Shown: positions 7,202-48,727, counted from the stretch's first letter. The stretch: DNA of 64,000 nt from Dehalococcoidia bacterium (GCA_009377745.1 WHTK01000016.1:1328-65327); one strand, 5' to 3'. The notes: generated by a model not told the origin, from the letters alone. Made by a program: numbers and translations.

Positions 7202-9569
7202 TTGGTTTCGTTGGTCGGTACCGATGCTAGGTGCGCGGCGCTGCCGGCGGAGAGCCGGATGGCCGGAGACCGAGCGGGGGCTAGCCTCCGTCCTGGCGGG
7301 CGCTGGCCCGGTTGCGCATTTTGGGCGCGCCGGTGGATCATTTGCCGCGTGACAGGATTCCGGCTGGTTCCAATGCTCGCCGCGGTCTTCGCCCTCGCCG
7401 CGACCGTCGGCGGTCTCGTCCTGCTCGTGAGTGAGGGGATCGCCCTCAGCGATCCTGTCGTCGAAGTCGTCGAGACGGGCTTCAGCACCACTCTCATCGG
7501 GCTGCTTCTGCTTTGGCAGCGGCCGGAGAACCGGATGGGCGGCATACTCATGGCCGCCGGGGTCCTCTTCGGGGTATCCACGCTCGCGGCGGGCGTCCTC
7601 GAGTCATCGGCCGGGCCACGGCTCGCAAGTGAGGCTGCCTTTGCGTGGATCTGGCTCGGCCAGGCCCCGCTCGCCCTGGTCTGGGCGCTGACGATCCTGG
7701 CCCTGCCCGATGGGAAGGTAGGAGGCGGGTTGCGGCGCAGCTTCCTGGCCGCGGCGGGCGTCATCTCGATCGGGCTCGCGACCGTCCAGTACGCCTTCGC
7801 GGGACAGGGACGGGTGCCCGAGTTCCCGCCCGCCCGGGCGCCTGCCGATCTGGCTGGACCGCTCGCCCACCTCGGCGGCTTGGAACCGCTCTATCAGTTG
7901 GGACAGGCCTTCTTCCCCGTGCTTCCCTTACTTGCCCTCCTCGGCCTGATCGCCCGCTTCCGTAGTGCCGACCCGGTCGTCCGCCAGCAGCTCAAGTGGG
8001 TGCTGCTCGCCGCGGCCCTGACCGTCCTCGCAAACGTCCTGCGCGTACTCCTTCACGCCGCCGGCGGTAGCCTCGATACGGCGGGCGCTGCCCTTGGTCT
8101 GGCCGCCTCGCCCCTGCCCGCGCTGGGCATCGCCTTCGCCGTCCTCCGCTACCGCCTGTGGGAGCTCGACCTGCTGGTCTCACGCGCCCTCATCTACGGG
8201 TTGCTCTCGTTGACGCTGGCGGCCGTCTTCCTGGCCGTCGCGCTCGCCGTCGGTCTCCTGGCCGGCGGCTCGGGCGTGCTCGTCCCGGTGGCGCTTGCAC
8301 TGCTTGTCGCGCTTGCGGCACAGCCGCTACGGTTGCGGCTGGAGCGGCTCGTGCGACGGCTCATCTACGGAGAGGAGCCGGCCGGCTACGCGGTCGTGGC
8401 CCGCTTCGGTGAAACCCTCACGGAGGCCGCCCGCGCCGGCGAGCTCGCGCCGCAGATCGCCGAGTCGGCGCGACGAGCGCTGCGGACGTCATGGGCTGGC
8501 GTCTGGCTGCGGGTCGAGTCCGGCGCCGCCGCGGCTCTCCGTCCGGCAGCTGTCGCCGGCGCGGACAATGGCGCGTCGGTACTCCTCGAGAAGGACGTCA
8601 TGGCTTGGCTCGCCTGTCTCTCCGGCCCTCTTCTCGCCAACGATGTCGCGTCCCAAGTGAGAGCTGCACTTGATCCCGTTTGGTGGCTGGAGCCGGCCGC
8701 ACTCGCTCCGCTCTCGGCCGGCAACGAACTGGTGGGCATCTTAATCTGCGGGGAGCGCGACGGCCGGCCGCTTGCCGTGCCTGACCTCGAGCTCATCGCC
8801 GTGCTCGCTCGCTCGGCCGCCCTCGCGCTCCGCAACCTGCGGCTCGAGGCCGAGCTCCGCAGCCGCCTTGAGGAGATCGAAGGGCAGGCGGAGGAGCTGC
8901 GCCGCTCACGGCGGCGACTCGTCACCGCCCAGGACACAGAACGCAGACGGATAGAGCGCGACCTCCACGACGGCATTCAGCAGCAACTCGTCAGTCTGGC
9001 AGCGAAGCTGACGCGCGCCTCTCGTTCCGCCCCCACTGAGGCCCAAGGGTTTCTGCGGGAGGCCGCCGCCGGACGCTGAGGAGTCTGTCTTCGCCCTACA
9101 AGAGCTCGCACGCGGCATCTACCCAAGCCTGCTTGCCGACCAGGGGCTCGCCGCCGCGATCCGCACTCACGCGAACCGGCTGCCGGCCGCGGTCCGGGTC
9201 GAGGTCGAGCCCACGCTCGCCGGACAGCGCTTCGGGCGTGAGGTCGAGGCGGCCTTCTACTTCGTCGCGCTTGAGGCGATGGCTAATGCCCAAAAGTATG
9301 CTGCAGAGGCGAGCCTGACTGTCTCGCTCAGAAGCACCGATGACGGAAGGCGCCTCGTCCTCGAGGTCCATGACGATGGCCCCGGCTTCGACCCGCGCCA
9401 CATCACGCACGGCGCGGGCCTCCAGAACATGGCTGACCGTCTCGCCGCTGTTGGCGGTACACTGACCGTGGATAGCCGGCCGGGGGCGGGCGTCTGGGTC
9501 CGCGCCGAGGCGCCGCTGGAGGCGCAGGTCGTGACCCTCAACGGCCGGGCGACTCCCGCAGGTAGATGA
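7202..9569 (+). CDS. Membrane sensor histidine kinase (multi-TM + GAF-like + HisKA_3 + HATPase_c), apparent +/-1 frameshift near 9070
   Basis: 625-aa ORF ends ...DLHDGIQQQLVSLAAKLTRA (HisKA_3 H-box). Kinase continues in another frame: ESVFALQELARGIYPSLLADQGL ... HATPase_c (LEVHDDGPGFDP...GLQNMADRLAAVGGTLTVDS) in ORF 9279-9569. Confidence 0.7.
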
Positions 9570-10224
9570 GCACGGCTGCCACACGCCGGTTGAGGTCGCT
9601 CTCCGGGGCGAGGCCGAGCTTCGAGAAGATCGTCGCGCTGCGCTTCTCCACCGTTCCGACGGAAACGTACAGCGCCTCGGCGATAAGCTTGTTCCCCAGG
9701 CCCTCAGCCATCAGCCGCAGCACATCGAGCTCTGCCGGTGTGAGCTCCGCGAGTGGCGAGCCGGGTTTGCGGGAGCGCTGGGCGAGGAGCTTGTCGACGA
9801 TACGCGGGTCGAGCACGGAGCCGCCGCTGGCCACCTCGCGAATCGCGCGCACGACCTGGTCGATATCCCCCACCCGCACCTTGTGCAGATAGCCGTAGCC
9901 CGCAACGCCGTGCTCGAGCAGCGCCCATACGTACCCTTCGTCGTCGTGCTGGGTCAGGATGACGATGCCGCTCTCGGGAAGCTCCTGCTTGATCACGTGA
10001 GCCGCCTCGATCCCTTCCATCGAATAGGTGGGCGGCATCTTGACGTCCATGAGGACCACGTCGGGTTTCAGCCGCCGCGCCTCGGCGAGGACGCCCTCGT
10101 AGTCAGAGGCCACGCCGACCACATCGAGGCCGCCGTTCTCCTCGAGCAGGCGCCTGGTGCCTTCGCGCATGAGGTACTGGTCCTCAGCGATCAGCACCCG
10201 CAGGCGAGCGTCATCCCGCTTCAC
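9538..10224 (-). CDS. NarL/FixJ-family response regulator (REC + LuxR HTH)
   Basis: LIAEDQYLMREG...DVVLMDVKMP (REC); C-terminal LTPAELDVLRLMAEGLGNKLIAEALYVSVGTVEKRSATIFSKLG (LuxR HTH). Convergent/overlapping with kinase. Confidence 0.85.
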   Translation of the reverse strand: MKRDDARLRVLIAEDQYLMREGTRRLLEENGGLDVVGVASDYEGVLAEARRLKPDVVLMDVKMPPTYSMEGIEAAHVIKQELPESGIVILTQHDDEGYVWALLEHGVAGYGYLHKVRVGDIDQVVRAIREVASGGSVLDPRIVDKLLAQRSRKPGSPLAELTPAELDVLRLMAEGLGNKLIAEALYVSVGTVEKRSATIFSKLGLAPESDLNRRVAAVLIYLRESPGR

Positions 10225-13749: not shown

Positions 13750-14230
13750 ATGACGATCAAAAGATTGGACCACGTCAGCGTCGTCGTCGACGCCCTTGCA
13801 GCCGCTAGCGCTTTTTTCACCGCGCTCGGGCATGACGCTCGAAGGCGAGACGCCGGTCGAGGGCCCGTGGGTCGATCGCATCAACGCGCTCGAAGATGTC
13901 CAGGTCGACATCGTTATGATGCGGACCCCAGATGGGCACGGGCGGCTTGAGCTGACGAAGTTTCGCAACGAAAGCGTGACAGATCAGCGCTTCCGCAACG
14001 TCCTGGAGAGCGCCGCCCGGCAGTTCGGCTCGACGCCCTCGAAGCCGCAGTCGGGGCGCGGCGTGGATTGTGCCCTCGCCTTCGATGTAGGTAGCTACGG
14101 CGGTGCCTGCTTCAAGCTCGATGTCTCCGGCAGCGAGGTCAACGTCGAGCGCGTTGTGCTGGCGGCCGATTGCGGCCAGATCGTCAACCCCGTCGGCGTC
14201 GAGAACCAGATCGAGGGCGCCATTGAATCA
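13750..14230 (+). pseudogene. Fragment mosaic: VOC/glyoxalase N-terminus (frameshifted) followed by aldehyde-oxidase/xanthine-dehydrogenase Mo-binding C-terminal fragment
   Basis: MTIKRLDHVSVVVDALAAASAFFTALG then, in another frame, VEGPWVDRINALEDVQVDIVMMRTPDGHGRLELTKF. Further on, VERVVLAADCGQIVNPVGVENQIEGA (CoxL/XdhB-like signature). Confidence 0.35.
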
Positions 14231-14956
14231 AACTATCCGTCGAGACGCGGGGGTGCTAAATCAATAGGTAGCACGATGACTTCCATGAGAAGGCTCCAAA
14301 ATAGAAAATTCCCGAGTGGTTCCCCGATTGTCTTGGATGACATAAGTCCAGACCAATCAGATTCAATGGCCTTTAACGGCCTTCCAATGGACTCTTTGAA
14401 GCGTCCCAGTGCGGCCTCATAACGCGAAGGTCAAGACGTTCGGTGACCAACCGTCCACCCAGAGTAATTACGGCCATCCTGGGACGGCCTAGCGACCAAG
14501 AAAGACTCGCCGCGCCCGTATCACGTCTTCTGGCGAGGTCCCTAATCCACAGTGAGCCTGCAAGTTTAATGGGGTTTGACCGGCTGCCGAACTCATAGCG
14601 GCGCTATCTTAGCGACTGACCGCCACTAGCTGGCTCGCGGGCAGCAGGTGAAGCACGTGACGACCTAACCATCCTCCATCCTTCGGCAGCGTCCTCGCAC
14701 AGTTGGACATGAAGGCTTCCTGAAGGTCCTTACCACTTGGGGACGGACTCGAACGTGCGACCAACTACTTGGAAGCAAAGGTTCATCGGGAGTTAGTCTA
14801 GCCTCGAAACCGCCTTCACGAGAACCCAGGGAGCGCGTCGGTTCGCCAAACTTGCCAACCGGCAACATGATGTTCACATGCCCGTCACTTGCCTGAAATA
14901 CGACCAGCCTAGATTCGATGCATTGGCCGTTCCCATAGAGGAGACGAGGTGCTGCA

Positions 14957-15340
14957 TTGAAAGAAGTCACCGCCATCCTGCGCCCGGAGAAGTGGGCCGC
15001 GACTCGCGAAGCCATCCAAGCCATTGGCGTCGAGGAGCTGATCCAGCACCGGGTGATTGGGCGTGGCAAGCAGCGCGGCCTTCGCTACCTCCGGCGCGCA
15101 ACGGACGCGGGGGAAGGGGATATGCCCTACCTGCCGAAGCGCATGGTCGTCTGCCTTGTCGCAGACGAGTCATATACGGCCCTGCTCAACGCAATCATCA
15201 AGGTCAATCAAACCGGCAACGTCGGTGACGGCAAGATATTCATCCGGTCGCTTGGCGTCATTCAAGACATCCAGCCCAAAGCAGACGCCGAGGCCAATGC
15301 CACCGCCGTGGCGCAGATTCCGGCACGAATTAGAACTTGA
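14957..15340 (+). CDS. P-II (GlnB/GlnK) family signal-transduction protein with extended T-loop; TTG start
   Basis: (M)KEVTAILRPEKWAATREAIQAIGVEELIQHRVIGRGKQRG...GDGKIFIRSLGVIQDI; first gene of a co-directional cluster. Confidence 0.55.
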   Translation: MKEVTAILRPEKWAATREAIQAIGVEELIQHRVIGRGKQRGLRYLRRATDAGEGDMPYLPKRMVVCLVADESYTALLNAIIKVNQTGNVGDGKIFIRSLGVIQDIQPKADAEANATAVAQIPARIRT

Positions 15341-15990
15341 CTAAGCGAGAAGGCATCAACTACCCCAAATTCAAAGACCAGTTTGCAGTCATGGACTTCG
15401 ACGCCGAGCCCATGCCCGTCCTCTCGCTCTTTCCCGTGCCTGACATCGCGCCAATCGAGGAATGGCAAGTCACGTTGACTGGGGTCATGGGAGAGCGCGT
15501 CACTCTAGGATGGCCTGATCTAGGCGCACTCCCGCGTGTGAGAGAGAGGGCACCGCTTGTTTGCCAGATCTTCAACTGGTCAGAGGAGCCGATCGTAGAG
15601 GGCGTACGACTCTGTGAGGTAGTCGAACTTGCTGGACTACAGGCTCAGGACCAGGCGTATTGGGGCTTCTACTCGGCCGACGGCTTCTACTTCGAGACTC
15701 TGCCGCGTTCGATGGCGCTCGATCCGCGTGTCTTGCTCGTCTTCGGTCTTAACGACGCCCCGCTTCCGACGCAGTACGGCGGGCCGCTGCGGCTCTGGGT
15801 GCCGTTTCTCCAAGGCTACAAGAGCGTGAAATGGGTGCAAACTGTCCGTGCTTTTCGAAAGGACCCGATCGGCATAAAGCGACTGCTCGGCCAGAGCCGC
15901 ACAGCGGTGCTGGGGAGCGACGGTCAGGAGAAGGCGGGCATCGTCGTCGCGAAGCCTGCTATGGGAGACGAGAGCCTCGCTGACATTTAA
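15337..15990 (+). CDS. Stand-alone sulfite-oxidase-family molybdopterin oxidoreductase domain protein (217 aa)
   Basis: WQVTLTGVMGERVTLGWPDLGALP...LVCQIFNWSEEPIVEGVRLCEVVELAG...YGGPLRLWVPFLQGYKSVKWVQTV; start overlaps P-II stop (ATGA-type coupling). Confidence 0.65.
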   Translation: MTKREGINYPKFKDQFAVMDFDAEPMPVLSLFPVPDIAPIEEWQVTLTGVMGERVTLGWPDLGALPRVRERAPLVCQIFNWSEEPIVEGVRLCEVVELAGLQAQDQAYWGFYSADGFYFETLPRSMALDPRVLLVFGLNDAPLPTQYGGPLRLWVPFLQGYKSVKWVQTVRAFRKDPIGIKRLLGQSRTAVLGSDGQEKAGIVVAKPAMGDESLADI

Positions 15991-16032
15991 GGCCATGCTT
16001 TTCATATCGCCAGCAGGGGAGGCTACCCGGGT

Positions 16033-17292
16033 TTGAACCCACCACTCGCAGCGCAACGCGGACACACGCCAACGCTCATCGCCTCCTTCTTGCATTTCGA
16101 CTTGAGCTTCATGCTTTGGGTCCTTCCCGGAGCTCTCGGCGTATACATCGCCAAGAGCCTGCAATTGACGCAGGCCGAGAAGGGCCTCGTGGTGGCGGTG
16201 CCGATCCTCAGCGGCGCTTTGCTTCGCCTGCCTATGGGGCTGCTCAGCGACCAGATTGGCGCGAAACGCGTCGGCATGGGCATGCTCGCTTTTCTCTTCC
16301 TTCCGTTAGCGCTGGGCTGGCAAGCGGGAAACAGTCTCCAAGCATGGCTCGGCATCGGCCTCTTGCTAGGGACGGCGGGCGCTTCCTTCGCCGTCGCCCT
16401 ACCATTGGCAAGCCGCTGGTACCCGCCGGAACGGCAGGGGCTCGTCATGGGAATAGCCGCAGCGGGCAATAGCGGTACGGTTATCGCTAACCTGCTGGCG
16501 CCCCGGCTGGCGAACCAGGTCGGCTGGCACAACGTCCTGGGCCTGGCGATGCTGCCTCTCGCACTCGTGCTGGTCGTCTTCGTGTTAGCGGCTAAGGACG
16601 CTCCAAAAATCGCAACCAGCCGCGAAGTCCTTCCGTTGCGATTGGTCCTGAGACAAGCAGACCTCTGGTGGTTCTGCCTCCTCTACAGCATCACTTTTGG
16701 CGGCTATGTCGGACTGACCAGCTTCTTCCCATTGTTCCTGCGCGGGCAATACGAGACCAGCCCGGTCACGGCTGGCTACCTAACGGCACTCGTGGCCTTT
16801 GCAGGCAGCGCCGTACGACCCCTCGGCGGATATCTTGCGGATCGATTCGGCGGCACGCAGATGCTTTCCCTGCTCCTGGTAGCGGTAGGCACCATTTACG
16901 CGGCCATTTCCTTTCTGCCGCCGCTCGGAGCCCTAATGCTGCTGGCTACAGTTGGCATCGCTTGTCTGGGCATGGGGAATGGCGCCGTCTTCCAGCTCGT
17001 GCCTCGCCGCTTCCAAGGTGAGATCGGCATTGCGACCGGCGTGGTCGGCGCCTTCGGTGGCATCGGCGGATTCCTCCTGCCCAACCTCCTGGCGAACGTC
17101 AAAGGAATTAGCGGTTCCTACGGCCCAGGCTTTCTTGTACTGACGGCCTGCTGCTTTGGAGTGCTATTTGCTCTGCGGGGATTAGCCCTGCTGAGCAGCG
17201 GCTGGCGCTTGTCCTGGGGAACGACTTTGGTGGGCACAACCTTGAAAACAGGCGCGCCAGAGCGGGTCCAGATGGCGCCATACATGCTATGA
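16033..17292 (+). CDS. MFS transporter, nitrate/nitrite porter (NNP) family-like
   Basis: 12-TM pattern; glycine-rich NNP-like signatures GIAAAGNSGTVIANLLAP and GVVGAFGGIGGFLLPNLL. Confidence 0.65.
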   Translation: MNPPLAAQRGHTPTLIASFLHFDLSFMLWVLPGALGVYIAKSLQLTQAEKGLVVAVPILSGALLRLPMGLLSDQIGAKRVGMGMLAFLFLPLALGWQAGNSLQAWLGIGLLLGTAGASFAVALPLASRWYPPERQGLVMGIAAAGNSGTVIANLLAPRLANQVGWHNVLGLAMLPLALVLVVFVLAAKDAPKIATSREVLPLRLVLRQADLWWFCLLYSITFGGYVGLTSFFPLFLRGQYETSPVTAGYLTALVAFAGSAVRPLGGYLADRFGGTQMLSLLLVAVGTIYAAISFLPPLGALMLLATVGIACLGMGNGAVFQLVPRRFQGEIGIATGVVGAFGGIGGFLLPNLLANVKGISGSYGPGFLVLTACCFGVLFALRGLALLSSGWRLSWGTTLVGTTLKTGAPERVQMAPYML

Positions 17293-17305
17293 GCGGGAGG
17301 GCCTG

Positions 17306-18862
17306 ATGCAGGTAGGAACCAATTCGATCGAGCGTCTCAAGGCGGAGAAGGATGGCCTCGATATCCAGTCGGAAATCGAGGAACTCGCAGCTCAGCATGG
17401 TGGCTGGGAGACGATGGATGCTCCGACCAGGGAACGACTGAAGTGGATCGGCACGTTCTACCGGAAGCCGACGCCGGGCCAGTTCATGATGCGCATCCGC
17501 ATCACGGGCGGTCAGGCGACTTCCGATCAGCTCCGAGCCTTGGCAGCGATCTCTCGCCGGCAGGGCAACGGCATACTCGACATTACTACCCGCCAACAAA
17601 TCGAGCTGCGAGCGATCCAGATCAGCAGCGTTCCAGGAATCCTCGAGGCGATGGAGGGCGTGGATCTCAGTTCCCTCCAAACAGGCATGGACAACGTGCG
17701 CAATGTGAACACTTGCCCGCTGTCCGGCCTGACTAACGCGGAGTTGCTGGACGCGGCTCCGGTGGGGGAAGAGTTGACTCGACTCTTCTTGAACAATAAG
17801 GAGTTCACGAATCTTCCCCGCAAGTTCAACGTGACCATTACCGGCTGCTTGGAGAACTGCACCCATACAGAAACGCAGGACGTAGGCATGACGCCCGCCG
17901 TGAGGCGCTCCGATGGTTTTCCAGGTTTCAACGTTGCCGTGGGCGGCAAGATGGGCTCCGGTGGCATGACCATCGCCCAACCCTTAAATGTTTTTGTCGA
18001 GCCGCACGAGGCCGCCGCTTTAACGGGGGCTATCATCCTTCTCTTCCGAGACGAGGGAAGCCGAGAGCAGCGCAGCCGCGCCCGCTTGGCCTTCTTGGTC
18101 GAGGACTGGGGGATCGAGCGCTTCCGCGCAGAACTCGAACGCCGTTGGGGGAAACCCCTGCAGGCGGCAGGGCGGGATGTTCGTCTCGCGACTCACACGG
18201 ATCACCTTGGCGTGGAAAAGCAACAGCAGTCCGGCCTCTGGTCCGTTGGCCTCTGCGTTCTCACCGGGCGTGTGAATGGTGAGCATCTTGAAGAGCTGGC
18301 CCGGCTGGCTGACACATACGGGTCGGGCCACGTCCGCCTGACTCCCGCGCAAAATGCCGTCCTTGTGAATGTCCCGGAGCAACGGCTACCAACCCTTTTG
18401 GCGGAGCCTTTGTTGAAAGAGCTCTCCCCACAAGCGCACTCCTTTACGAGGGGGATGGTTACCTGCATTGGCACGGATTACTGCAATCTGGCGTTGATTG
18501 AGACTAAAACAACGGGCAGGGATCTCGCCGAGCGGCTGGCCGAGCGCTTCCCCTTGGCGGAGCCATTGACCATGCATTGGTCGGGTTGCCCGGCCGGATG
18601 CGGCAACCATCAGGCGGCTGACATCGGCTTCCAGGGAACCAAAGCGCGCATTGACGGCGAAGTCGTGGACGCGGTCAGCATCTTCGTCGGCGGCCAGACC
18701 GGTCCAAACGCTAGGCCGGCGGAAATGCTCATGGACCTCGTGCCAGTGACAATGCTGGACGATGTGATGCCGCTCCTCATCAGCAACCTGGAGACACTGA
18801 AGAAGGTCCGCAGGGTACCGGAGGCGGAAGAAAGCGTCCTCATGGTGCCGGCCCTGCCCTGA
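17306..18862 (+). CDS. nirA: Ferredoxin-dependent assimilatory nitrite/sulfite reductase (siroheme + 4Fe-4S)
   Basis: Two NIR_SIR repeats; cysteine cluster TCIGTDYCNLALIETK...WSGCPAGCGNHQAADIGFQG. Confidence 0.8.
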   Translation: MQVGTNSIERLKAEKDGLDIQSEIEELAAQHGGWETMDAPTRERLKWIGTFYRKPTPGQFMMRIRITGGQATSDQLRALAAISRRQGNGILDITTRQQIELRAIQISSVPGILEAMEGVDLSSLQTGMDNVRNVNTCPLSGLTNAELLDAAPVGEELTRLFLNNKEFTNLPRKFNVTITGCLENCTHTETQDVGMTPAVRRSDGFPGFNVAVGGKMGSGGMTIAQPLNVFVEPHEAAALTGAIILLFRDEGSREQRSRARLAFLVEDWGIERFRAELERRWGKPLQAAGRDVRLATHTDHLGVEKQQQSGLWSVGLCVLTGRVNGEHLEELARLADTYGSGHVRLTPAQNAVLVNVPEQRLPTLLAEPLLKELSPQAHSFTRGMVTCIGTDYCNLALIETKTTGRDLAERLAERFPLAEPLTMHWSGCPAGCGNHQAADIGFQGTKARIDGEVVDAVSIFVGGQTGPNARPAEMLMDLVPVTMLDDVMPLLISNLETLKKVRRVPEAEESVLMVPALP

Positions 18863-18891
18863 AGAATTTTAGAGAGGGAAATGTAGAAGAA

Positions 18892-19209
18892 ATGAAGATG
18901 ATTCAAGCGGTTCTAAGACCCGATCGTGAGGAACCGGTAGCTGCCGCCCTGGCGAAAGCAAACTTTCCGGCGCTGACTAAGTGGGACGTTGTCGGTCGCG
19001 GCAAACAACAGGGAATCCAGGTTGGTAGCCAGATGTACGACGAGCTGGCGAAGTCCATGATGATTGTCGTTGTCAACGACGATGACGCCGAGCGGGTCGT
19101 CCAGATCATTCGAGAGGCCGCTTACAGCGGCTACACCGGAGACGGGAAGATATTTGTCGCGCCCATCGACGATGCCTACACAATTCGCACCGGAAAGGCG
19201 GAACTTTAA
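18892..19209 (+). CDS. P-II family signal-transduction protein (second copy)
   Basis: MKMIQAVLRPDREEPVAAALAKANFPALTKWDVVGRGKQQGIQVG...YTGDGKIFVAPIDDAYTIRTGKAEL. Confidence 0.6.
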   Translation: MKMIQAVLRPDREEPVAAALAKANFPALTKWDVVGRGKQQGIQVGSQMYDELAKSMMIVVVNDDDAERVVQIIREAAYSGYTGDGKIFVAPIDDAYTIRTGKAEL

Positions 19210-19520
19210 GGCTCGTCATTCTTCGAACCCGACGATGATTCCCCTCTATATGAAAAGATAGGAGGCCCGTAAAGACCTCCTGCAGCATTGCTATTGGATT
19301 GTGTTCTCGCCGATGCCCGTCTTTAAGTAACGCTCCTTGGAAAACTTGGCTGTTGACTAATAACCGGGCCTATGTTTTCTTAGGTGGCGGTCTCCGGCTC
19401 CTTGTCAGGCCCTGCCTCCGGCTGGGCTAGAGCGCTACCTCTTGTGAAATCGGCCACCACTGGACCAACATGGGCATGTTGATGACGTGAACGAAAGTTG
19501 GCCTTGCGCGCGGATTGGCT

Positions 19521-19723
19521 ATTGTCTGCGGGACAATGCCGGTTTTTTGAGCTACGCTTAGCGTCCCAGCAGACTCAAGAATGCTAGAATTTCATTGTCT
19601 CGGGGACAAAGCCCCCGGCGACCTGACTGAATTTCGAGGACGGTTTCGCGGTTTGAGACTAACCCCCGATAACCCTTGCTTCCAAGCAGGCTGTCGCGGG
19701 TTCGAGTCCCGTCCCCCGCTCCA
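19521..19723 (+). repeat. Repeat A1: two ATTGTC-N5/6-GACAA palindromes (19521-19537, 19593-19610) followed by tRNA 3'-end-like core (19673-19723, canonical T-arm + acceptor + CCA)
   Basis: attgtctgcgggacaat ... cattgtctcggggacaaag ... ccttgcttccaagcaggctgtcgcgggttcgagtcccgtcccccgctcca; homologous to 23284-23468 and (3' part) to the tRNA-like gene at 24748. Confidence 0.6.
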
Positions 19724-19888
19724 TTTACCCAGATTTTAGATTGAAACCAGGTCCAGTTTCCGATTGTTTGTGTAGTTTCCCGCTGTTGCCGAACGCGGGT
19801 AAGATGTCAGTTGCCCAGTAGGGCCGACCGTCGAGGAGCGGGTGGAACCACTCCTTCTTCGAGAGGAAAAAACCAAGGCGTCGTCTGG

Positions 19889-21676: not shown

Positions 21677-23248
21677 TTAGCTGGGGATTGGTTCTGCGAT
21701 CAGCCCGTGTTGGACGGCGAAGAGCGTAGCGCCGACGCGCGTCGATACGCCGATCTTGCTGTAGATGTTCTCGAGGTGATGTCCCACAGTCTTGGGCGCG
21801 AGGAAAAGCGCTTCAGCTATCTGGCGGTTGGAAAGGCCGCGCACTGCAAGGCAAAGAACTTCCACTTCTCGTTCGCTAAGACCGGCAGGCAACGGTCGCT
21901 TATCGCGCTGAGGCTGATGTCCGGCCGCGCTGAGGAGCGCCTCGACTACGTCGCGGTCGAGCTTGCCATGATCGGCCTGTCTGCGCACCTCATCTGCTGC
22001 GAGCTCAGGTGTCATCGCCTCGCGGTGAGGACGCGGCTCGAGCTTGCTCTGGTAAGTATCCGCGGCCGCAAGGATCCGGGCGGTGAGCGGAAGCGAGGTG
22101 GCGGAGAGTCCACGATAGCCGGAACCGTCGAGCTTCTCGTGGTGTAGGCCGGCGAGCGTCCCCAAGTGGCCAAGGGAACTGGAGCGGGCGAGCACAATCT
22201 CAGTGAGCGAAGGATGCCGTTTCATGCGCTCCCACTCCTCGCCACTGAGCGGCTCTGTTTTATTCCAGAAGGAGACAGGTGCGCCCGCACGGCCCAAGTC
22301 ATGCAGCAGGCCTGCGTGTCGAAGTGCCATCGCCTCGCTCGCAGGAACTCCAAGCGCTAGGGCCGCTCGTTCGGCAAGGGAGGCGACCATAGGGGAATGG
22401 CCGACAGTGTACGGCGAACGCATATCGATAAAGTTGGCGACCTTGCAGGCGACCTCATCGAACTGAGCGAAAGAGAGGAGTCGCGGGGGAGCCGGTTCAA
22501 CACTCAGTACAGCATCCCAGGCCGACTCAGACTGGAGCCGATTGAGAAGCGCTGCCCCGACCGCGCTGAATCGCTCGGCGATGCGAGGGTCGTAGATCTT
22601 GCCGGCTCGCTTGCGCACCACTGTGAGGGCAGCGTCGGCGCCACCCAGCCGGTTGAATACCTCGACGTCTTGAGCCAGGATGAAGATCCGTGCGGCGAGG
22701 TGGATTTCCTCCCCCTTGAGCCCCAATACGGGTCCCTTGCCGTTCCAATGCTCGTCGCACTGACCCAGAGCTTCCTTAATTGCGGGGCCGAGGTCGAGCA
22801 AGCCGCCGACGTGCAGCGCAACGTCACGGCATATTGCCTGCGACTGTCTGCCCAAGGACAAGAGCTTGGTGAGGCGTCGCAAAGGGGGGTCACCGGCGCC
22901 TGCATGGCGCAGAAAGAACGCTGCGACCTTTAGCGGCTGCGATGGGTCGAGCATGGCCATCTCTTCGCGTACGGCGATTTCGTCCTTGACGAAGCCCGCG
23001 AAGGCCGAGCCATCCAGCACACAGCCGACGCTGCCGAGGAGAGCGACGTAGTAGGCATCGCTCAGGTCCCGCTGACTGAGGCCAAGCTCCTCGCCCAGCC
23101 AGACTGCCAGCAGTGTGCGCCGCAGGCTATGCTCAAGCGGCTGGCCCTCGGCCAAGTCCGTGGCGAGGGCCAGCGAGGCGATGACATCCGCCATGCGAAC
23201 GGTGGGCGCGGTGGCTTGTCTGTCCGCCATACCGGCTGTTGTTGTCAC
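21677..23248 (-). CDS. HD-GYP-type phosphohydrolase domain fused to C-terminal LuxR HTH regulator
   Basis: HDLGRAG...HHEKLDGSGYRG (HD-GYP) and LSEREVEVLCLAVRGLSNRQIAEALFLAPKTVGHHLENIYSKIGV (LuxR HTH). Confidence 0.7.
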   Translation of the reverse strand: MTTTAGMADRQATAPTVRMADVIASLALATDLAEGQPLEHSLRRTLLAVWLGEELGLSQRDLSDAYYVALLGSVGCVLDGSAFAGFVKDEIAVREEMAMLDPSQPLKVAAFFLRHAGAGDPPLRRLTKLLSLGRQSQAICRDVALHVGGLLDLGPAIKEALGQCDEHWNGKGPVLGLKGEEIHLAARIFILAQDVEVFNRLGGADAALTVVRKRAGKIYDPRIAERFSAVGAALLNRLQSESAWDAVLSVEPAPPRLLSFAQFDEVACKVANFIDMRSPYTVGHSPMVASLAERAALALGVPASEAMALRHAGLLHDLGRAGAPVSFWNKTEPLSGEEWERMKRHPSLTEIVLARSSSLGHLGTLAGLHHEKLDGSGYRGLSATSLPLTARILAAADTYQSKLEPRPHREAMTPELAADEVRRQADHGKLDRDVVEALLSAAGHQPQRDKRPLPAGLSEREVEVLCLAVRGLSNRQIAEALFLAPKTVGHHLENIYSKIGVSTRVGATLFAVQHGLIAEPIPS

Positions 23249-35965: not shown

Positions 35966-38011
35966 ATGGTGCGAAGCAGGGAGCGAGGACGAAGCAAGGA
36001 GCTGGCCTCGCGGGTAGACGAAGTGTTACTCACCGAACAATTGGGCTCGCGGCCGGCCAGACAGCGGAATTACATCGCCGAGCACTCTGCCTTCGTCACG
36101 CTGGCGCGCGAGATGTCGGCGTCGTCCAGTTCGTTCACCCAGTGCCTGTGTGATTTGGCCCTGGAACTCTGCAATGCAGGCAGCGCCGGCATTAGTCTTC
36201 TTAGCAGGGAAGATGGCACGGAAGCGTTGCGCTGGATAGCCCTGTCTGGGGCTTATGCTACCTACGTTGACGGGACCACTCCGCGCGATTTCAGTCCGTG
36301 CGGAACCTGTCTCGATCGCGGCAGCCCTCAGTTATTCTCCTATCCAGAGCGCTATTTCACGTACTTTGCGAAGGTGGAGCCGCCTATTGTTGAGGGGCTG
36401 GTCGTTCCTTTCCGCGCCCATGGCTTGGACTTGGGCACAATTTGGGTTGTTTCCCACGACGACAGCCATAGAGGATTCGATGCCGAGGACGCGAGAGTCC
36501 TAGAGAGCTTCGGAAATTTCGCTGCCGCTGCTCTCCAGCAGGTGCATCTCCGAGAGAACATCAGCGAAAGCGAGCTCGGTCTGCGTCGAATGCTGGATGC
36601 TTTCGGCCTCCCCGTGTACGCCACCGATGCCGAAGGTCTCATTCTCCAGTACAACGAACAAGCTGCGGCCTTGTGGGGGCGAAGGCCGGAAGTCGGCAAG
36701 GATATGTGGTGCGGCTCCTGGAGAATCTTCTCGACCGAAGGGGCGCCGGTCCCGCTTGATGCTTGCCCGATGGCGATTACTTTGCGAGAGAACCGGCCAA
36801 TTCACGATGAGGAGATCATCGTCGAGCGGCCTGATGGCTCGCGCCGCAGGATCCGGCCATACCCGTCTCCGCTCAGGGACGAGTCGGGCAAGCTGGTTGG
36901 CGCTGTCAACATTCTCCTGGATGTGACAGACCAGCGGCGGGGCGAAGAGGCCCTGGCCCGCCTGGCAGCGATCGTTACGTCCTCACAGGACGCAATTGTC
37001 GCGAAAGACCTCAATGGCATTGTTACCGCGTGGAATAGCGGCGCGGAGAGTATGTTCGGCTATTCAGCGGCAGAGGCCGTGGGACAGTCCATCCGTCTCA
37101 TCATTCCGAATTACCGCCAGGACGAGGAGGACCGAGTACTCGAGAGCATCCGCCGTGGCGAGCGAGTAGAACACTTCGAGACCGTGAGGCGCAGGAAAGA
37201 CGGGACGGAGATCCCAATTTCGCTCACCGTTTCGCCCGTAAAGACAGCCTCCGGCCAAATCATTGGTGCATCAAAAATTGCGCGAGACATCAGTGAACGG
37301 AAGAAGGCAGAGGCCGCGCTCAGGCAAGCTCAGGAAATGAAAGACCACTTTCTTAGCCTCATTTCACACGAGCTACGCAACCCGCTGTCGACGATTCTGG
37401 GCAATGGCATCTTGCTGCGCCGTCGAGCCCAGCAACAAGATGAGGCGGACGTGATTCAGGGATTGGACGACATTGTCTCGTCCGCCAGGAAGCTAGATAG
37501 CTATGTCGAAAACCTGCTCATTTTTCAGAGGCTTGAGTCCGGCCAGCTCGAACTAGACCTCTTGTCCCTTCCAGCACTTGCCGTAAAAGGCATTCAGACA
37601 TTCCAGACAGAGAACCCGGCACGCACTATTCGCTTCAACTCTCCGGAGGACGTCAAGCCGTGCTTCGGCCAAGAAGCCTTGGTGTCCTTGGTCATTCAGA
37701 ACCTGCTAGCCAACGCAAATAAATACAGTCCGCCCGAGACTGAAATCGATGTCAGTGTCGTGGCAAATGATAACGGCGACCCGGAGCTCCATGTGATCGA
37801 CCGTGGCATTGGTTTGAACAAAGAAGACATGGCCAGCATATTTACGCCGTTCTACCGCTCCAAGAAAGCGAGGGCTCAAGCCAGCGGTATGGGCCTTGGT
37901 CTGGCAGTGTGTAAGCGGGCCATGGAAGCTCTAGGCGGCTACATTCGCGTCCAAAGTCGCGTGGAAGGCTCCGACTTCTATGTCTGCCTCAAGGCTGCAG
38001 AAGCTGATTAG
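35966..38011 (+). CDS. Cytoplasmic sensor histidine kinase: GAF + 2xPAS + HisKA + HATPase_c
   Basis: 681 aa; H-box LISHELRNPLSTILG; G-boxes IDRGIGL, GMGLGLAVCKRAMEALGG. Confidence 0.8.
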   Translation: MVRSRERGRSKELASRVDEVLLTEQLGSRPARQRNYIAEHSAFVTLAREMSASSSSFTQCLCDLALELCNAGSAGISLLSREDGTEALRWIALSGAYATYVDGTTPRDFSPCGTCLDRGSPQLFSYPERYFTYFAKVEPPIVEGLVVPFRAHGLDLGTIWVVSHDDSHRGFDAEDARVLESFGNFAAAALQQVHLRENISESELGLRRMLDAFGLPVYATDAEGLILQYNEQAAALWGRRPEVGKDMWCGSWRIFSTEGAPVPLDACPMAITLRENRPIHDEEIIVERPDGSRRRIRPYPSPLRDESGKLVGAVNILLDVTDQRRGEEALARLAAIVTSSQDAIVAKDLNGIVTAWNSGAESMFGYSAAEAVGQSIRLIIPNYRQDEEDRVLESIRRGERVEHFETVRRRKDGTEIPISLTVSPVKTASGQIIGASKIARDISERKKAEAALRQAQEMKDHFLSLISHELRNPLSTILGNGILLRRRAQQQDEADVIQGLDDIVSSARKLDSYVENLLIFQRLESGQLELDLLSLPALAVKGIQTFQTENPARTIRFNSPEDVKPCFGQEALVSLVIQNLLANANKYSPPETEIDVSVVANDNGDPELHVIDRGIGLNKEDMASIFTPFYRSKKARAQASGMGLGLAVCKRAMEALGGYIRVQSRVEGSDFYVCLKAAEAD

Positions 38012-48400: not shown

Positions 48401-48727
48401 GTTGGCAAATTCCGCAGGCGTCACCGCCGCGCCGTCGAGAGTAGTCGGCGCGAGGGCTCCGTCTCCGGTCGGACCTGGGGAGGGTCTGTCCACGGTACCA
48501 GGCAAGATCCCCTGCGTTCTCTGGATACCGGGAGTCTGCCTGTCAACGACCACAGGTGGGAGCACATGGACGTTGCCGTCGAACATCCCAGGCGTTACCG
48601 GATCGCTAACGAAAGGCCCTGGTTGCTGCGCCCGCGCCTCAGGAGCGCCATCAGTCAGAAATGAGGCGCAGATGATAAAGAGCAGAATGAGACCGATTTG
48701 ACCGGAGAAAGATCGCAAAGGCTTCAT
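45446..48727 (-). CDS. Giant secreted protein with N-terminal globular region and multiple C-terminal DUF11 (conserved-repeat) domains
   Basis: Signal peptide MKPLRSFSGQIGLILLFIICASF; at least 4 repeats of ...DKT(D/A)SPDPV.AGE.LTYT(V/I)(D/T)VTN.G...A. Confidence 0.75.
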   Translation of the reverse strand: MKPLRSFSGQIGLILLFIICASFLTDGAPEARAQQPGPFVSDPVTPGMFDGNVHVLPPVVVDRQTPGIQRTQGILPGTVDRPSPGPTGDGALAPTTLDGAAVTPAEFANANPNFDGIPYTGFVPPDPVGDVGPNHYIEMVNSQFQIFDKQGGNAAGPFNINSLWVNAGVGNLCLNNNNGDPYVVYDHLADRWLMSQFAVPNGFATPPTAQCIAISQTADPVNGGWYLYEFVFNFGHDYPKIGLWPDGYYMSSQQGFSGGSLNAVVFDRANMLNGNPATFQAFTSGSPALIWLPSDLDGPAPPPGTPNIFARHVDGDLWGGADRVDLRAFSVDWGDPTNSSFTPLPSLATAAFDSDLCNGTNLFNNCVPQPTGGVLLETLTHWAMGPLQYRDFGDYATLVFNHTVDVDGADHAGVRWYELRDEGAGWFIRQQATHSPDAGNPGFADDPHRWMGSIAMDKAGNMALGYSISDGNTIFPGVAYVGRLAGDPLGLMPQGAPPNGEFVLVNGQDSQIVNGSRWGDYSAMRVDPVDNCTFWYVNQYITNNPLVGQPTGGAWGTRIGAFRFPSCNQVDLSINKTDSPDPVVAGEILTYTVDVTNNGGNTATNAVVTDTLPSGVTYIADSDSCVEAPALTLTCSIGNLAGGGNTSFTIQVRVDASLLANLDVATTSIGNTASVDSDQEDANPEDNSVTISTNVIESADLRITKECKPDQPNAAPAGTETFCDIYVDNLGPSDARDVVITDQIISTTPITVTGITSSSTEGPAASCSPATPIGPDTEITITCEDDVLPAGARDTITVTFTADEPGDVDDTATVSSETPDPDNSNNIAIGRVTFAAGADLSLDKTASPDPVTAGEELTYTITVTNDGPSTAQAVEVRDDLPAELTNVSVSSPGNTCNAGVPGDPLLPLTCNMGNLASGDVEVITVVADVRADTPDGTILFNQARVSSDTGDPDNSNNNDSVPVDVEAEADLEVVKTSDAATYKPNTTITYRVTVTNLGSSDAQNVLLVDQLLDDKKMVYESDTGGCIFEAPRTLTCDLGVLEAGESTEFFIFIKVKGAFGDVPNTATVSSSTDDPDLSNNEDTLIVAVQGGPP

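Follow-up and report, generated by a model that had tools for sequence, protein, structure and literature searches.

The 64,000-nucleotide stretch of Dehalococcoidia DNA that was analysed, referred to here as the window, contains five genes that the sequence-only reading had described as co-directional and closely spaced, and all five open reading frames were found on one strand as described (Table 1). The spacings between them are, in order, -4, 42, 13, and 29 nt, the first of these being a 4-bp overlap between the stop of a NifI2-like P-II gene and the start of the gene for a molybdenum (Mo) domain protein. The NifI2-like gene and a NifI1-like gene bracket the operon and are not adjacent to each other. 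Chance does not explain this five-gene arrangement: of 59 untruncated related loci, drawn from three phyla, 54 show it again.

Table 1. Genes of the operon at positions 14957-19209 of the window.
Feature	Position	Strand	Product length	Start codon
Long-T-loop P-II	14957-15340	+	127 aa	TTG
Mo domain protein	15337-15990	+	217 aa	TTG
MFS transporter	16033-17292	+	419 aa	TTG
NirA	17306-18862	+	518 aa	ATG
Short P-II	18892-19209	+	105 aa	ATG

The Mo protein matches the Oxidored_molyb domain, PF00174, over residues 33-175 with a score of 85.8 bits, against a Pfam gathering cut-off of 24. PF00174 is its sole domain: a domain scan returned no further match, and the protein is without a heme, FAD, or Mo-co dimerisation domain, as had been read from the sequence. 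Also borne out is the presence of two motifs of the sulfite oxidase family, LVCQIFNWSE and GGPLRLWVP...SVKWV. Across 68 homologues, C76, G148-G149-P150, R152, and S163-V164-K165-W166 are invariant. C76 aligns with the cysteine of the LQC motif of plant sulfite oxidase (SO) and with that of the MRC motif of MsrP, both of which we take from published structures to be Mo ligands. Likewise, GGPLRLWVP aligns with GFPLRVVVP of plant SO and KSVKWV with RSVKWL; in published SO structures, the molybdopterin-binding segments are of the HGxPxR and SVKW types. When an AF2 model of the Mo protein (pLDDT 82.6, pTM 0.81) was submitted to Foldseek, the matches included chicken SO (1.3e-11), MsrP/YedY (2e-10), and Pichia nitrate reductase (NR; 1.6e-9), and the Foldseek probability was 1.00 against chicken SO, SorA, YedY, SoxC, plant SO, and Pichia NR. 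The Mo protein is a member of the SUOX-fold superfamily, PF00174.

The N-terminus of the Mo protein (MTKREGINYPKF...) shows neither a Tat nor a Sec signal, having no RR motif and no hydrophobic segment, and the alignment with MsrP begins only at MsrP residue 109. Because it has no Tat signal, the Mo protein is presumably cytoplasmic. Its family has strongly conserved ends of its own, an N-terminal REGINYPKFKDQFA... and a C-terminal DPxGIKRLLGQSRT, and is a tight one, with just 22 representatives at E<=1e-30 in 1.84 billion proteins.

Profile comparisons of the Mo protein gave E-values of 1.6e-13 for plant SO, 8e-13 for Thermus SO, 3e-8 for YedY, and 1.5e-5 for NR. A specific relationship to eukaryotic NR is ruled out by the difference between the values for NR and plant SO, and the idea that the Mo domain might lie near eukaryotic NR has to be given up: the profile match to NR is the weakest of the four, and the cysteine loop is MsrP-like. 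The loop is short in both proteins (LVCQIFNWS in the Mo protein and MRC-VEAWS in MsrP), and hhalign matches the two with a probability of 97% and an E-value of 3.8e-11. The Mo protein is nevertheless not MsrP proper, scoring 38 bits on NF003767 against a cut-off of 207. We also rejected its assignment as a sulfite dehydrogenase (SorT, 32 bits against a cut-off of 570; SoxC, 28.7 against 420; SorA, 20.5 against 600) and as NasA/NarB, whose domains PF00384, PF01568, and PF04879 are absent from it.

In SO and NR, the oxyanion is bound by arginines of the RNH motif, the CAGNRR loop, and the dimerisation domain. The RNH arginine of plant SO falls on the invariant L29 of the Mo protein, a position that is extrapolated from a printed alignment beginning at residue 33. 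In this alignment, which is to plant SO, the Mo protein lacks the AGNRR segment of the CAGNRR loop, and the dimerisation-domain arginine is missing. Other invariant basic residues of the Mo protein, namely R4, K13, R131, K181, and R182, might substitute for these arginines.

The best family for the window MFS protein is NarK (TIGR00886), with a score of 262.6 bits that does not reach the curated 311.7; the runner-up family scores 64 bits. The counterpart at the same position in another Dehalococcoidia locus, L020, scores 314.1 bits on TIGR00886 and thus exceeds the cut-off. The window protein contains AAAGNSG and LGMGNGAVFQLVP, both of which, in our estimation, resemble nitrate-signature motifs. 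By its best family it is a probable NarK/NNP-type nitrate/nitrite transporter, and its substrate we infer. For NirA, the best family is ferredoxin-nitrite reductase (NF007125), with a score of 513.9 bits that lies below the equivalog cut-off of 594, whereas sulfite reductase models score 125-192 bits, the ferredoxin-sulfite reductase model giving 125. A thaumarchaeal NirA homologue, in locus L054, reaches 596 bits on NF007125, above the cut-off. The domain scan of the window NirA returned NIR_SIR twice and NIR_SIR_ferr twice, and the siroheme/[4Fe-4S] cluster motifs are found as Cx5C at residue 387 and Cx3C at residue 428.

Both proteins encoded at the ends of the operon match the P-II domain PF00543, the 127-aa protein with 55 bits and the 105-aa protein with 93.5 bits. 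The best solved relative of the 127-aa protein is chain G of 9P1X, Methanosarcina acetivorans NifI2 (E 1.3e-18, 43% identity over 105 aligned residues), and that of the 105-aa protein is chain H of the same structure, NifI1 (E 4e-29, 51% identity over 104 residues), the next match to the latter protein being at 69 bits. For both proteins, the NifI matches outrank every GlnB/GlnK structure, which rules out a generic GlnB/GlnK identity for the pair. Thus, the two bracketing P-II regulators of the sequence-only reading are present, but they are not of a generic P-II type. The translated 127-aa protein carries the B-loop TGNVGDGKIF and has an extended T-loop; the T-loop of the 105-aa protein is short. 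Among 80 related loci, there are 13, all from Nitrospirota, in which the NifI2-like P-II is fused in frame to the Mo domain, and public data hold at least 120 distinct clusters of Mo-P-II fusions. Two loci (L009 and L010) contain P-II, Mo, and P-II genes only. No nif genes were seen among the annotated genes of the window or the conserved neighbours of the related loci. We propose that the 127-aa P-II is the regulatory partner of the Mo enzyme and that the 105-aa P-II is the second subunit of the couple.

The Mo family ranges over Dehalococcoidia/SAR202, Nitrospirota, and a few Thaumarchaeota. Synteny in relatives had been suggested as a check on the operon, and the neighbourhood of nitrite reductase, transporter, and P-II genes does recur across these three phyla. 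A nitrite reductase gene accompanies the Mo gene in 69 of the 80 loci and a NarK/Nrt transporter gene likewise in 69, with both present in 64 and two or more P-II genes in 64; for the 59 untruncated loci, the corresponding counts are 57, 54, 54, and 52. Clustering of neighbouring open reading frames from the 80 loci revealed no other conserved neighbour, including any electron-transfer partner or MsrQ. The partners of the Mo gene vary: the nitrite reductase may be a ferredoxin-dependent NirA, a NirB-like NAD(P)H nitrite reductase of 1025-1134 aa, or a NirA-Rieske fusion, and the transporter may be NarK or NrtABC. At one locus (L055), the stop of the Mo gene overlaps the nitrite reductase start by 4 bp, and in some loci ammonium transporter and nitrate-binding protein genes lie near the cluster.

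A DMSO-reductase-family gene was detected by tblastn within 8 kb of the Mo gene in one of the 80 loci, and this lone exception, L048, was rejected as a canonical nitrate reductase, being DmsABC-like and having a membrane anchor. A tblastn search of the 64-kb window with a DMSO-family query found no such gene, and a domain scan of the window's ten largest open reading frames turned up neither PF00384 nor PF01568, nor an N-terminal Fe4S4 motif. In cyanobacteria, the layout of the nitrate assimilation genes is nirA-nrtABCD-narB. The gene order at locus L079 is hemL, nirA, a binding protein gene, nrtB (its product scoring above cut-off), nrtC/D, and the Mo gene, which is the exact place of narB in the cyanobacterial layout. 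At L083, from a Leptospirillum MAG, the operon continues with genes for MoaA, MoaD, MoaE, MoeA, MoaC, and MogA/B, and MobA was not seen within the locus. Genes for molybdenum cofactor (Moco) biosynthesis also flank both thaumarchaeal clusters, L053 and L054.

We consider it probable that the operon serves nitrate assimilation and that a minimal cytoplasmic Mo enzyme with a sulfite oxidase fold replaces the NasA/NarB-type bis-MGD enzyme in it, a functional reading drawn wholly from comparative genomics, from genomic context, and from the step that the pathway would otherwise lack. The Mo protein would then be a candidate cytoplasmic assimilatory nitrate reductase of a single domain. That a stand-alone enzyme of this fold at the place of nasA/narB might be an alternative nitrate reductase had been suggested before, and the suggestion is now supported by the co-occurrence of the genes, the lack of a canonical reductase gene in the window and near the Mo gene in the related loci, the narB position, and the Moco genes. 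Nitrate would enter through the MFS protein, a NarK-type transporter by family assignment, with nitrate as the likely substrate. The 217-aa protein would bind plain molybdopterin Moco via Cys76 and reduce nitrate to nitrite; its conserved residues align with cofactor motifs, and the context suggests nitrate as the substrate. The probable electron donor is reduced ferredoxin, which would also serve NirA. Other lineages may use redox modules on the nitrite reductase, which would be an FAD/NAD(P)H and [2Fe-2S] part in Nitrospirota and a NirA-fused Rieske domain in Thaumarchaeota. NirA, as its family assignment indicates, would reduce nitrite to ammonium. The NifI2-like and NifI1-like proteins would assemble into a heterotrimeric sensor of 2-oxoglutarate and ATP/ADP that, in nitrogen-replete cells, would inactivate the Mo enzyme by binding it directly, in the way that NifI1,2 acts on nitrogenase; we infer this shut-off from the NifI precedent, the 4-bp overlap, and the natural Mo-P-II fusions. 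We found no description of such a system in the searchable literature, and the operon points to an undescribed, widespread microbial route of nitrate use.

Several observations count against a nitrate reductase: to the extent that the alignment shows, the Mo protein does not keep the oxyanion arginines of SO and NR at the homologous positions, no conserved dedicated electron-transfer partner is encoded nearby, NarK and NrtABC are also able to carry nitrite, the window NarK and NirA fall below the NCBIfam curated cut-offs, and many carriers oxidise nitrite or ammonia and would need no more than nitrite assimilation. The alternative of nitrite-only assimilation, which we judge unlikely though still deserving of attention, would make the Mo protein an auxiliary reductase that either clears reactive compounds that nitrite chemistry gives off (hydroxylamine, N-hydroxylated compounds, or NO-related species) or repairs oxidised methionine in the manner of MsrP. 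Mo enzymes such as mARC, of the MOSC superfamily, reduce N-hydroxylated compounds, which speaks for such a role, as do the absence of the canonical oxyanion arginines, the resemblance to MsrP in the cysteine loop and by hhalign, and the many carriers that are Nitrospira-like nitrite oxidisers or Thaumarchaeota. It is also favoured by a 2025 comparison of Nitrospirales that lists, near a NirB cluster, a PF00174 cluster auto-annotated as MsrP/K07147, which may be the Mo family. However, fusion to a NifI2-type sensor of nitrogen status, or translational coupling with one, is unlikely for a detoxification or repair enzyme, and one would expect to find such an enzyme neither in the place of narB behind nrtABC nor in a nitrate/nitrite operon with a full Moco-biosynthesis set. 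Moreover, the Mo protein has no Tat signal, MsrQ is absent among its conserved neighbours, and its score on the MsrP model is far under the cut-off.

The Mo protein could instead be non-catalytic, comparable to PruR: it would bind Moco or a pterin and act as a sensor or adaptor subunit, alongside the P-II couple, in controlling the transporter or the nitrite reductase. Its very small size, the lack of a redox partner domain, its fusion to a signalling protein in Nitrospirota, and the two loci that hold just P-II, Mo, and P-II genes would all suit this role, and Foldseek also matches the SUOX-like pterin-binding PruR proteins, at about 1e-6. We find it improbable, given that the enzymes are far closer than PruR (1e-11 versus 1e-6, with query-normalised TM-scores of 0.60 versus 0.45), that neither the cysteine at the Mo-ligand position nor the cofactor-segment motifs vary across three phyla, and that a non-catalytic protein would leave the nitrate-reducing step of the NrtABC or NarK clusters without an enzyme. 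A sulfur metabolism cluster of sulfite dehydrogenase and sulfite reductase, already disfavoured, is scarcely credible. PF00174 is best known from sulfite oxidases, which are also the closest solved structures, and NIR_SIR domains are common to sulfite and nitrite reductases. Against this, the regulators belong to the P-II nitrogen sensors, genes for ammonium transporters and nitrate-binding proteins lie close by in some loci, and the sulfite-binding arginines are absent at the aligned positions. The sequence-only reading had held that sulfur assimilation would be the better interpretation if the transporter were not of the NNP family, NirA grouped with sulfite reductases, and the Mo enzyme grouped with sulfite dehydrogenases. 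We found that the transporter is NarK-like (or, in L079, includes an NrtB above cut-off), that NirA scores 514 bits as a ferredoxin-nitrite reductase against 125-192 on sulfite reductase models, and that the sulfite dehydrogenase models give 20-32 bits against cut-offs of 420-600.

As a candidate nitrate reductase, the Mo protein would share its reaction and its place in the operon with NasA, NasC, and NarB, which belong to the DMSO reductase family and have bis-MGD and an N-terminal [4Fe-4S] cluster. It differs from them in having an unrelated fold, about one-third of the size, and no Fe-S cluster. Whereas NasA and NarB use bis-MGD, the Mo protein should need Mo-MPT, which is consistent with the Moco set at L083, where MobA was not seen. 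Plant SO (1OGP), SorA, SorT, SoxC, and Thermus SO are the best sequence and structure matches of the Mo domain, and the Mo-ligand cysteine and pterin-binding segments of plant SO and the sulfite dehydrogenases align with it. Unlike these enzymes, the Mo protein has no dimerisation domain, does not keep the sulfite-binding arginines at the aligned positions, scores far under the family cut-offs, and is encoded in a nitrogen rather than a sulfur context. With MsrP/YedY it has in common a lone Mo domain without a dimerisation domain and, as proposed here, a reductase rather than an oxidase activity. It differs from MsrP/YedY in lacking a Tat signal, in having no MsrQ-type membrane partner among its neighbours, in its gene context, which is wholly one of nitrogen assimilation, and in its own conserved N- and C-terminal segments.

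Eukaryotic NR (Pichia angusta, 2BIH/2BII) resembles the Mo protein in its fold superfamily, in Mo-molybdopterin with a cysteine ligand, in the reaction proposed, and in its place in a pathway beside an NNP/NRT2-type transporter and a siroheme nitrite reductase. However, it is a weak relative, with 20% identity in the structural alignment, and it has dimerisation, cytochrome b5, and FAD/NADH domains where the bacterial protein has the Mo domain alone. The Mo protein also has the short CQIFNWSE loop where the aligned plant SO has CAGNRR, and the P-II couple is proposed as its regulator. Eukaryotic NR (EUKNR) is confined to eukaryotes, having arisen there through gene fusion (PMC6400420), and therefore the Mo family would represent an independent recruitment of the fold. 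The P-II pair, for its part, resembles NifI1/NifI2 (9P1X; PMC12439982) in consisting of two paralogues, one of about 105 aa and a longer one with an extended T-loop. In the NifI precedent, the target enzyme is bound directly and inhibited, and 2-oxoglutarate plus ATP relieves the inhibition (PMC12439982). NifI proteins are described in the NifI literature as limited to anaerobes and diazotrophs, whereas the window pair lies outside a nif operon and is proposed to act on a Mo enzyme that would serve nitrate assimilation. Unlike the NifI genes, the window genes bracket their operon rather than adjoin each other, and the Nitrospirota fusions join the NifI2-like protein to its presumed target.

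As the sequence-only reading had described, the five genes of the operon are co-directional and closely spaced, with a 4-bp overlap between the first two and later gaps of 42, 13, and 29 nt. That reading had also described the molybdenum (Mo) protein, the candidate nitrate reductase, as lacking heme, FAD, and dimerization domains, and PF00174 is indeed its sole domain. Assignment of the other genes to an NNP transporter, NirA, and two P-II regulators is supported by the best Pfam and NCBIfam families, with NarK and NirA scores that lie under the cut-offs. The transporter scores 262.6 bits against TIGR00886 (cut-off 311.7), and the runner-up family scores 64 bits. NirA, in which Cx5C and Cx3C cluster motifs were found, scores 513.9 bits against the ferredoxin-nitrite reductase model (cut-off 594) and only 125-192 bits against sulfite-reductase models. 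No sigma-70-like promoter was found in the region upstream of the operon, as compared with 1.7 expected, and neither Rfam families nor tRNAs were found across the 64-kb window. Further upstream, a 208-aa ORF with a short match to a molybdenum cofactor-binding domain looks like the remnant of a larger molybdoenzyme gene.

Coordinates of the operon genes, of other features of the window, and of features in related loci
Feature	Sequence	Coordinates	Strand	Description
Long P-II	window	14957-15340	+	127 aa, TTG start; P-II, 55 bits (Pfam/NCBIfam)
Mo protein	window	15337-15990	+	217 aa, TTG start; Oxidored_molyb PF00174, 86 bits
MFS transporter	window	16033-17292	+	419 aa, TTG start; best family NarK TIGR00886
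NirA	window	17306-18862	+	518 aa, ATG start; NIR_SIR protein, best model ferredoxin-nitrite reductase
Short P-II	window	18892-19209	+	105 aa, ATG start; P-II, 93.5 bits
MoCoBD_2 ORF	window	13796-14422	+	208 aa; match at residues 107-143 (xanthine-dehydrogenase-family cofactor-binding domain)
Upstream region	window	14423-14956		about 530 nt between MoCoBD_2 ORF and first P-II gene, apparently non-coding
Hairpin	window	19260-19281	-	sole hairpin near operon 3' end; between convergent genes (19210-19888 region)
Sensor kinase	window	7202-9079		GAF/HisKA_3
G+C peak	window	8001-10000		0.70 vs about 0.60 elsewhere; overlaps sensor kinase gene
HD-GYP-type protein	window	21677-23248	-	HD_5, LuxR/GerE DNA-binding domain; no obvious operon link
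Histidine kinase	window	35966-38011	+	GAF-PAS; no obvious operon link
DUF11 protein	window	45446-48727	-	1093 aa; four DUF11 repeats, CARDB/Ig-like domains; presumably a surface protein
GC skew	window	46-48 kb		locally raised
DmsA-like oxidoreductase and anchor subunit	L048	2444-6507
P-II/Mo/P-II genes	L009, L010	about 7636-9076
Sigma-54 activator	L055	6181-7842
Sigma-54 activator	L062	850-2448
NirA-Rieske fusion, MoaA, further cofactor genes	L054	5961-7916 and 9955-10983

As a single sequence, the Mo protein has only distant matches in the PDB (plant sulfite oxidase, 1.6e-6; Pichia nitrate reductase, 0.05). A profile of 68 homologues matches plant (1.6e-13), Thermus (8e-13), and chicken (2e-9) sulfite oxidases, YedY/MsrP (3e-8), SorA (4.5e-7), and Pichia nitrate reductase (1.5e-5). 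Likewise, the AlphaFold2 model (pLDDT 82.6, pTM 0.81) matches sulfite oxidase, YedY/MsrP, SorA, and nitrate reductase structures with a probability of 1.00 and 20-25% identity. Cys76, which is invariant across the family, aligns with the cysteine of the LQC motif of plant sulfite oxidase and with that of the MRC motif of E. coli MsrP (hhalign probability 97% for MsrP), both of which are Mo ligands in published structures. The invariant GGPxR and SVKW motifs align with the pterin-binding segments of sulfite oxidase. After the cysteine comes a short loop of the MsrP kind (CQIFNWS vs C-VEAWS), which lacks the AGNRR insertion of sulfite oxidases and nitrate reductases, and the position of the RNH-motif arginine is occupied by an invariant leucine once the printed alignment is extended by four residues. 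R4, K13, R131, K181, and R182 are further invariant basic residues, which might serve as an anion site instead. The Mo protein is thus predicted to be a genuine though divergent sulfite-oxidase-fold enzyme. It is presumably cytoplasmic, since it has no signal peptide.

No NCBIfam model exists for the Mo family, and the MsrP, SorT, SoxC, and SorA models give only 20-38 bits vs cut-offs of 207-600. When 1.84 billion cluster representatives were searched exhaustively, only 22 matched at E<=1e-30, and below these the matches dropped to generic PF00174 proteins. By these measures, we judge the family to be compact, strongly conserved, and well separated. Close homologues are mostly 215-217 aa long, come from Dehalococcoidia/SAR202 MAGs, and have generic names; the source databases call the Mo protein "molybdopterin-dependent oxidoreductase" or "YedYZ catalytic subunit".

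Eighty loci with Mo-gene homologues, 59 of them untruncated, came from a scan that took one genome per species. Their hosts are Dehalococcoidia and other members of the Chloroflexota, Nitrospirota (among them Nitrospira, Leptospirillum, Manganitrophaceae, and Troglogloeales), and two Thaumarchaeota. Complete Dehalococcoidia chromosomes with the cluster include OZ242348.1, OZ244813.1, OY761986.2, and OZ253478.1. Mapping by tblastn and ORF clustering across these loci identify nitrite reductase, nitrate/nitrite transporter, and P-II genes as the sole conserved neighbors, so that the synteny check envisaged at the outset shows the association to recur in relatives. The flanks carry a nitrite reductase in 69 loci (57 of the untruncated ones), a NarK or Nrt transporter in 69 (54), both of these in 64 (54), and at least two P-II genes in 64 (52). 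All-against-all clustering of 4437 neighboring ORFs revealed no additional conserved gene for a redox partner or a ferredoxin; the other clusters that recur fall within the core genes but on the opposite strand, and probably represent spurious antisense ORFs.

The types of partner vary and the association with the Mo gene persists. The transporter in many Dehalococcoidia loci is a different NarK paralogue that scores above the TIGR00886 cut-off, and in one locus (L079) it is of the NrtABC type; the genes there run hemL, nirA, binding protein, nrtB, nrtC/D, Mo gene. This order mirrors the cyanobacterial nirA-nrtABCD-narB layout, with the Mo gene in the place of narB. This locus and L078 are labeled Dehalococcoides (one as D. 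mccartyi), yet they have nirA, nrtABC, and the Mo gene beside hemL and a BamB-like gene, and the label of these MAGs may be unreliable. The nitrite reductase of 15 loci is a protein of 1025-1134 aa that joins an FAD/NAD(P)H reductase and a BFD [2Fe-2S] domain to the siroheme part; in one Nitrospirota locus (L055), the start of this fusion-type gene overlaps the Mo gene stop by 4 bp. Both thaumarchaeal loci (L053 and L054) encode a 651-aa NirA with a C-terminal NirD/Rieske-like domain. Directly upstream of the Mo gene in seven Nitrospirota loci, L055 and L062 among them, lies a gene for a GAF-domain sigma-54 activator of NtrC/NifA-like architecture, which suggests that transcription of the cluster is sigma-54-dependent in these hosts. 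Ammonium transporters occur near the cluster in six loci, and an OmpL-like porin is also found nearby.

Bacterial nitrate assimilation is inferred in metagenome surveys from nasA/narB markers of the DMSO-reductase family. A Pfam scan found no PF00384 protein among the ten largest ORFs of the window, and tblastn with a DMSO-family query gave no match in the window or in 79 of the 80 loci. When 44 representatives of the large neighboring ORFs were scanned with Pfam, a single DMSO-family match was obtained, in a locus from a Nitrospirae MAG (L048) that is the only one of the 80 with such a gene nearby. There, the Mo gene is directly preceded by genes for a DmsA-like molybdopterin oxidoreductase and for a subunit in which Fe-S and DmsC-anchor parts are fused; we rejected this enzyme as an assimilatory nitrate reductase, as it is DmsABC-like with a DmsC anchor. 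These Pfam scans of the largest window ORFs and of the representatives, with the tblastn search of the window and all loci, likewise led us to reject a DMSO-type nitrate reductase hidden nearby. The results are consistent with the proposal that, within this neighborhood, the Mo gene takes the place of nasA/narB.

In some loci, molybdenum cofactor genes adjoin the cluster. In a Leptospirillum MAG (L083), a Mo-P-II fusion is followed by P-II, MFS, a NirB-like reductase, and P-II, and then by MoaA, MoaD, MoaE, MoeA, MoaC, and MogA/B; no MobA was seen within this locus. This gene set is the one required for Mo-molybdopterin, the cofactor form of sulfite-oxidase-family enzymes. The need for MobA is limited to bis-MGD, the cofactor of enzymes of the NasA/NarB type. 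In both thaumarchaeal loci, which belong to an ammonia-oxidizer lineage and also carry the NirA-Rieske fusion, MoaA is the next gene after the transporter, and a few kb beyond it lie MoaC, MogA/B, and MoeA. Their MoaA scores higher against the general model TIGR02666 than against the archaeal model, suggesting a bacterial-type gene. The thaumarchaeal cluster looks like a transferred island, and the Rieske domain fused to NirA might pass electrons to the Mo enzyme.

Both P-II regulators said to bracket the operon are present, and their closest solved relatives specify them further. The 105-aa protein is NifI1-like, matching chain H of 9P1X (E 4e-29, 51% identity; next match 69 bits), and the 127-aa protein is NifI2-like, matching chain G (E 1.3e-18, 43% identity). 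This structure is the Methanosarcina acetivorans NifDK-NifI1-NifI2 supercomplex, in which NifI1 and NifI2 form 2:1 heterotrimers that bind and block nitrogenase until 2-oxoglutarate and ATP release the complex (PMC12439982). In 13 of the 80 loci, all from Nitrospirota, a single ORF of 365-385 aa encodes both the Mo domain and a P-II domain, the latter nearer to the 127-aa than to the 105-aa protein. These fusions are not assembly artefacts, since a database search found at least 120 distinct clusters of PF00174 + PF00543 fusion proteins. Two Dehalococcoidia loci (L009 and L010) contain only the long P-II, Mo, and short P-II genes, with no transporter or nitrite reductase within 8 kb, which suggests that the Mo enzyme and the P-II couple form the core module. 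We take the NifI likeness, the 4-bp overlap of the NifI2-like and Mo genes in the window, the fusions, and these minimal loci together as strong though indirect evidence that the Mo enzyme would be the direct target of the P-II couple.

The Mo protein is probably an assimilatory nitrate reductase. Nitrate reduction is the only step of the pathway without an assigned gene and the Mo gene the only conserved gene without an assigned role; the protein would be a cytoplasmic molybdenum-cofactor enzyme, and its family has a bona fide nitrate reductase among its members; and its gene has the narB position, is linked to sensors of nitrogen status, and in some lineages shares an operon with cofactor genes. 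Electrons may come from ferredoxin or from redox modules that the nitrite reductases carry. Enrichments of Ca. Manganitrophus grow with nitrate as nitrogen source (PMC9040806), and a Manganitrophaceae MAG (L069) carries the cluster. This link is circumstantial, and partner organisms in the cultures could account for the growth.

The MsrP-like cysteine loop, the lack of the arginines that canonically bind the anion, and the nitrifying hosts would also fit a cluster that handles nitrite only, with the Mo protein as an auxiliary N-oxide, hydroxylamine, or Met-sulfoxide reductase. This is the main rival, though we regard it as unlikely; it is hard to see why an auxiliary enzyme should be fused to a NifI2-like sensor or stand in for narB behind nrtABC. 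The AlphaFold2 model also matches non-catalytic pterin-binding PruR proteins, more weakly than it does the enzymes. A role as a non-catalytic pterin or molybdenum-cofactor sensor is nonetheless very unlikely, since the residues that align with the Mo ligand and with the cofactor-binding positions are invariant. A role in sulfur metabolism is highly improbable, being contradicted by all family scores. The sequence-only reading had named sulfur assimilation as the alternative should the transporter, NirA, and the Mo enzyme group otherwise than proposed; the MFS protein is NarK-like, NirA is of the nitrite type, and the Mo protein scores poorly on the MsrP and sulfite-dehydrogenase models, so that we rejected sulfur assimilation on family scores and gene context.

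Taking the nitrate-reductase assignment together with its regulation and spread, we lean toward a third, so far unrecognized class of assimilatory nitrate reductase in prokaryotes: a single-domain Mo-molybdopterin enzyme of about 215 aa with the sulfite-oxidase fold, which would have been recruited independently of the eukaryotic enzyme and would be switched post-translationally by a directly bound NifI1/NifI2-type couple (fused in Nitrospirota). It apparently spread by horizontal transfer among SAR202/Dehalococcoidia, Nitrospirota (including nitrite oxidizers, Leptospirillum, and Mn-oxidizing Manganitrophaceae), and a subset of Thaumarchaeota. In that case, metagenome surveys would systematically underestimate the capacity for nitrate assimilation. 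Abundant lineages (SAR202/Dehalococcoidia of the deep ocean and soil, many Nitrospirota including nitrite, iron, and manganese oxidizers, and some ammonia-oxidizing archaea) would have been counted as non-users of nitrate or as bearing an MsrP-like gene that lacks an explanation.

In a 2025 comparison of Nitrospirales, a gene cluster with PF00174 appears as MsrP/K07147 near a NirB cluster, without functional comment, and this may be the same family. The literature searched in full text contained no prokaryotic sulfite-oxidase-fold assimilatory nitrate reductase and no NifI-like proteins in nitrate clusters; papers on Nitrospina, Nitrolancea, Acididesulfobacillus, Methanococcales, and SAR202 had no bearing on the system. 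The reaction and the fold superfamily are already known; the candidate novelty lies in the enzyme class and the regulatory arrangement in prokaryotes. Sulfite-oxidase-type nitrate reductase has been considered restricted to eukaryotes (PMC6400420); the prokaryotic enzyme, if real, would be an independent recruitment of that fold and the smallest nitrate reductase known, with one domain and no Fe-S, heme, or flavin. NifI proteins, likewise, are described as confined to anaerobic diazotrophs, in a literature that does not mention nitrate assimilation. NifI-type regulation would then not be confined to nitrogenase or to anaerobes, and the direct-binding inhibition lately solved for nitrogenase would apply to a second enzyme of nitrogen acquisition and also in aerobes.
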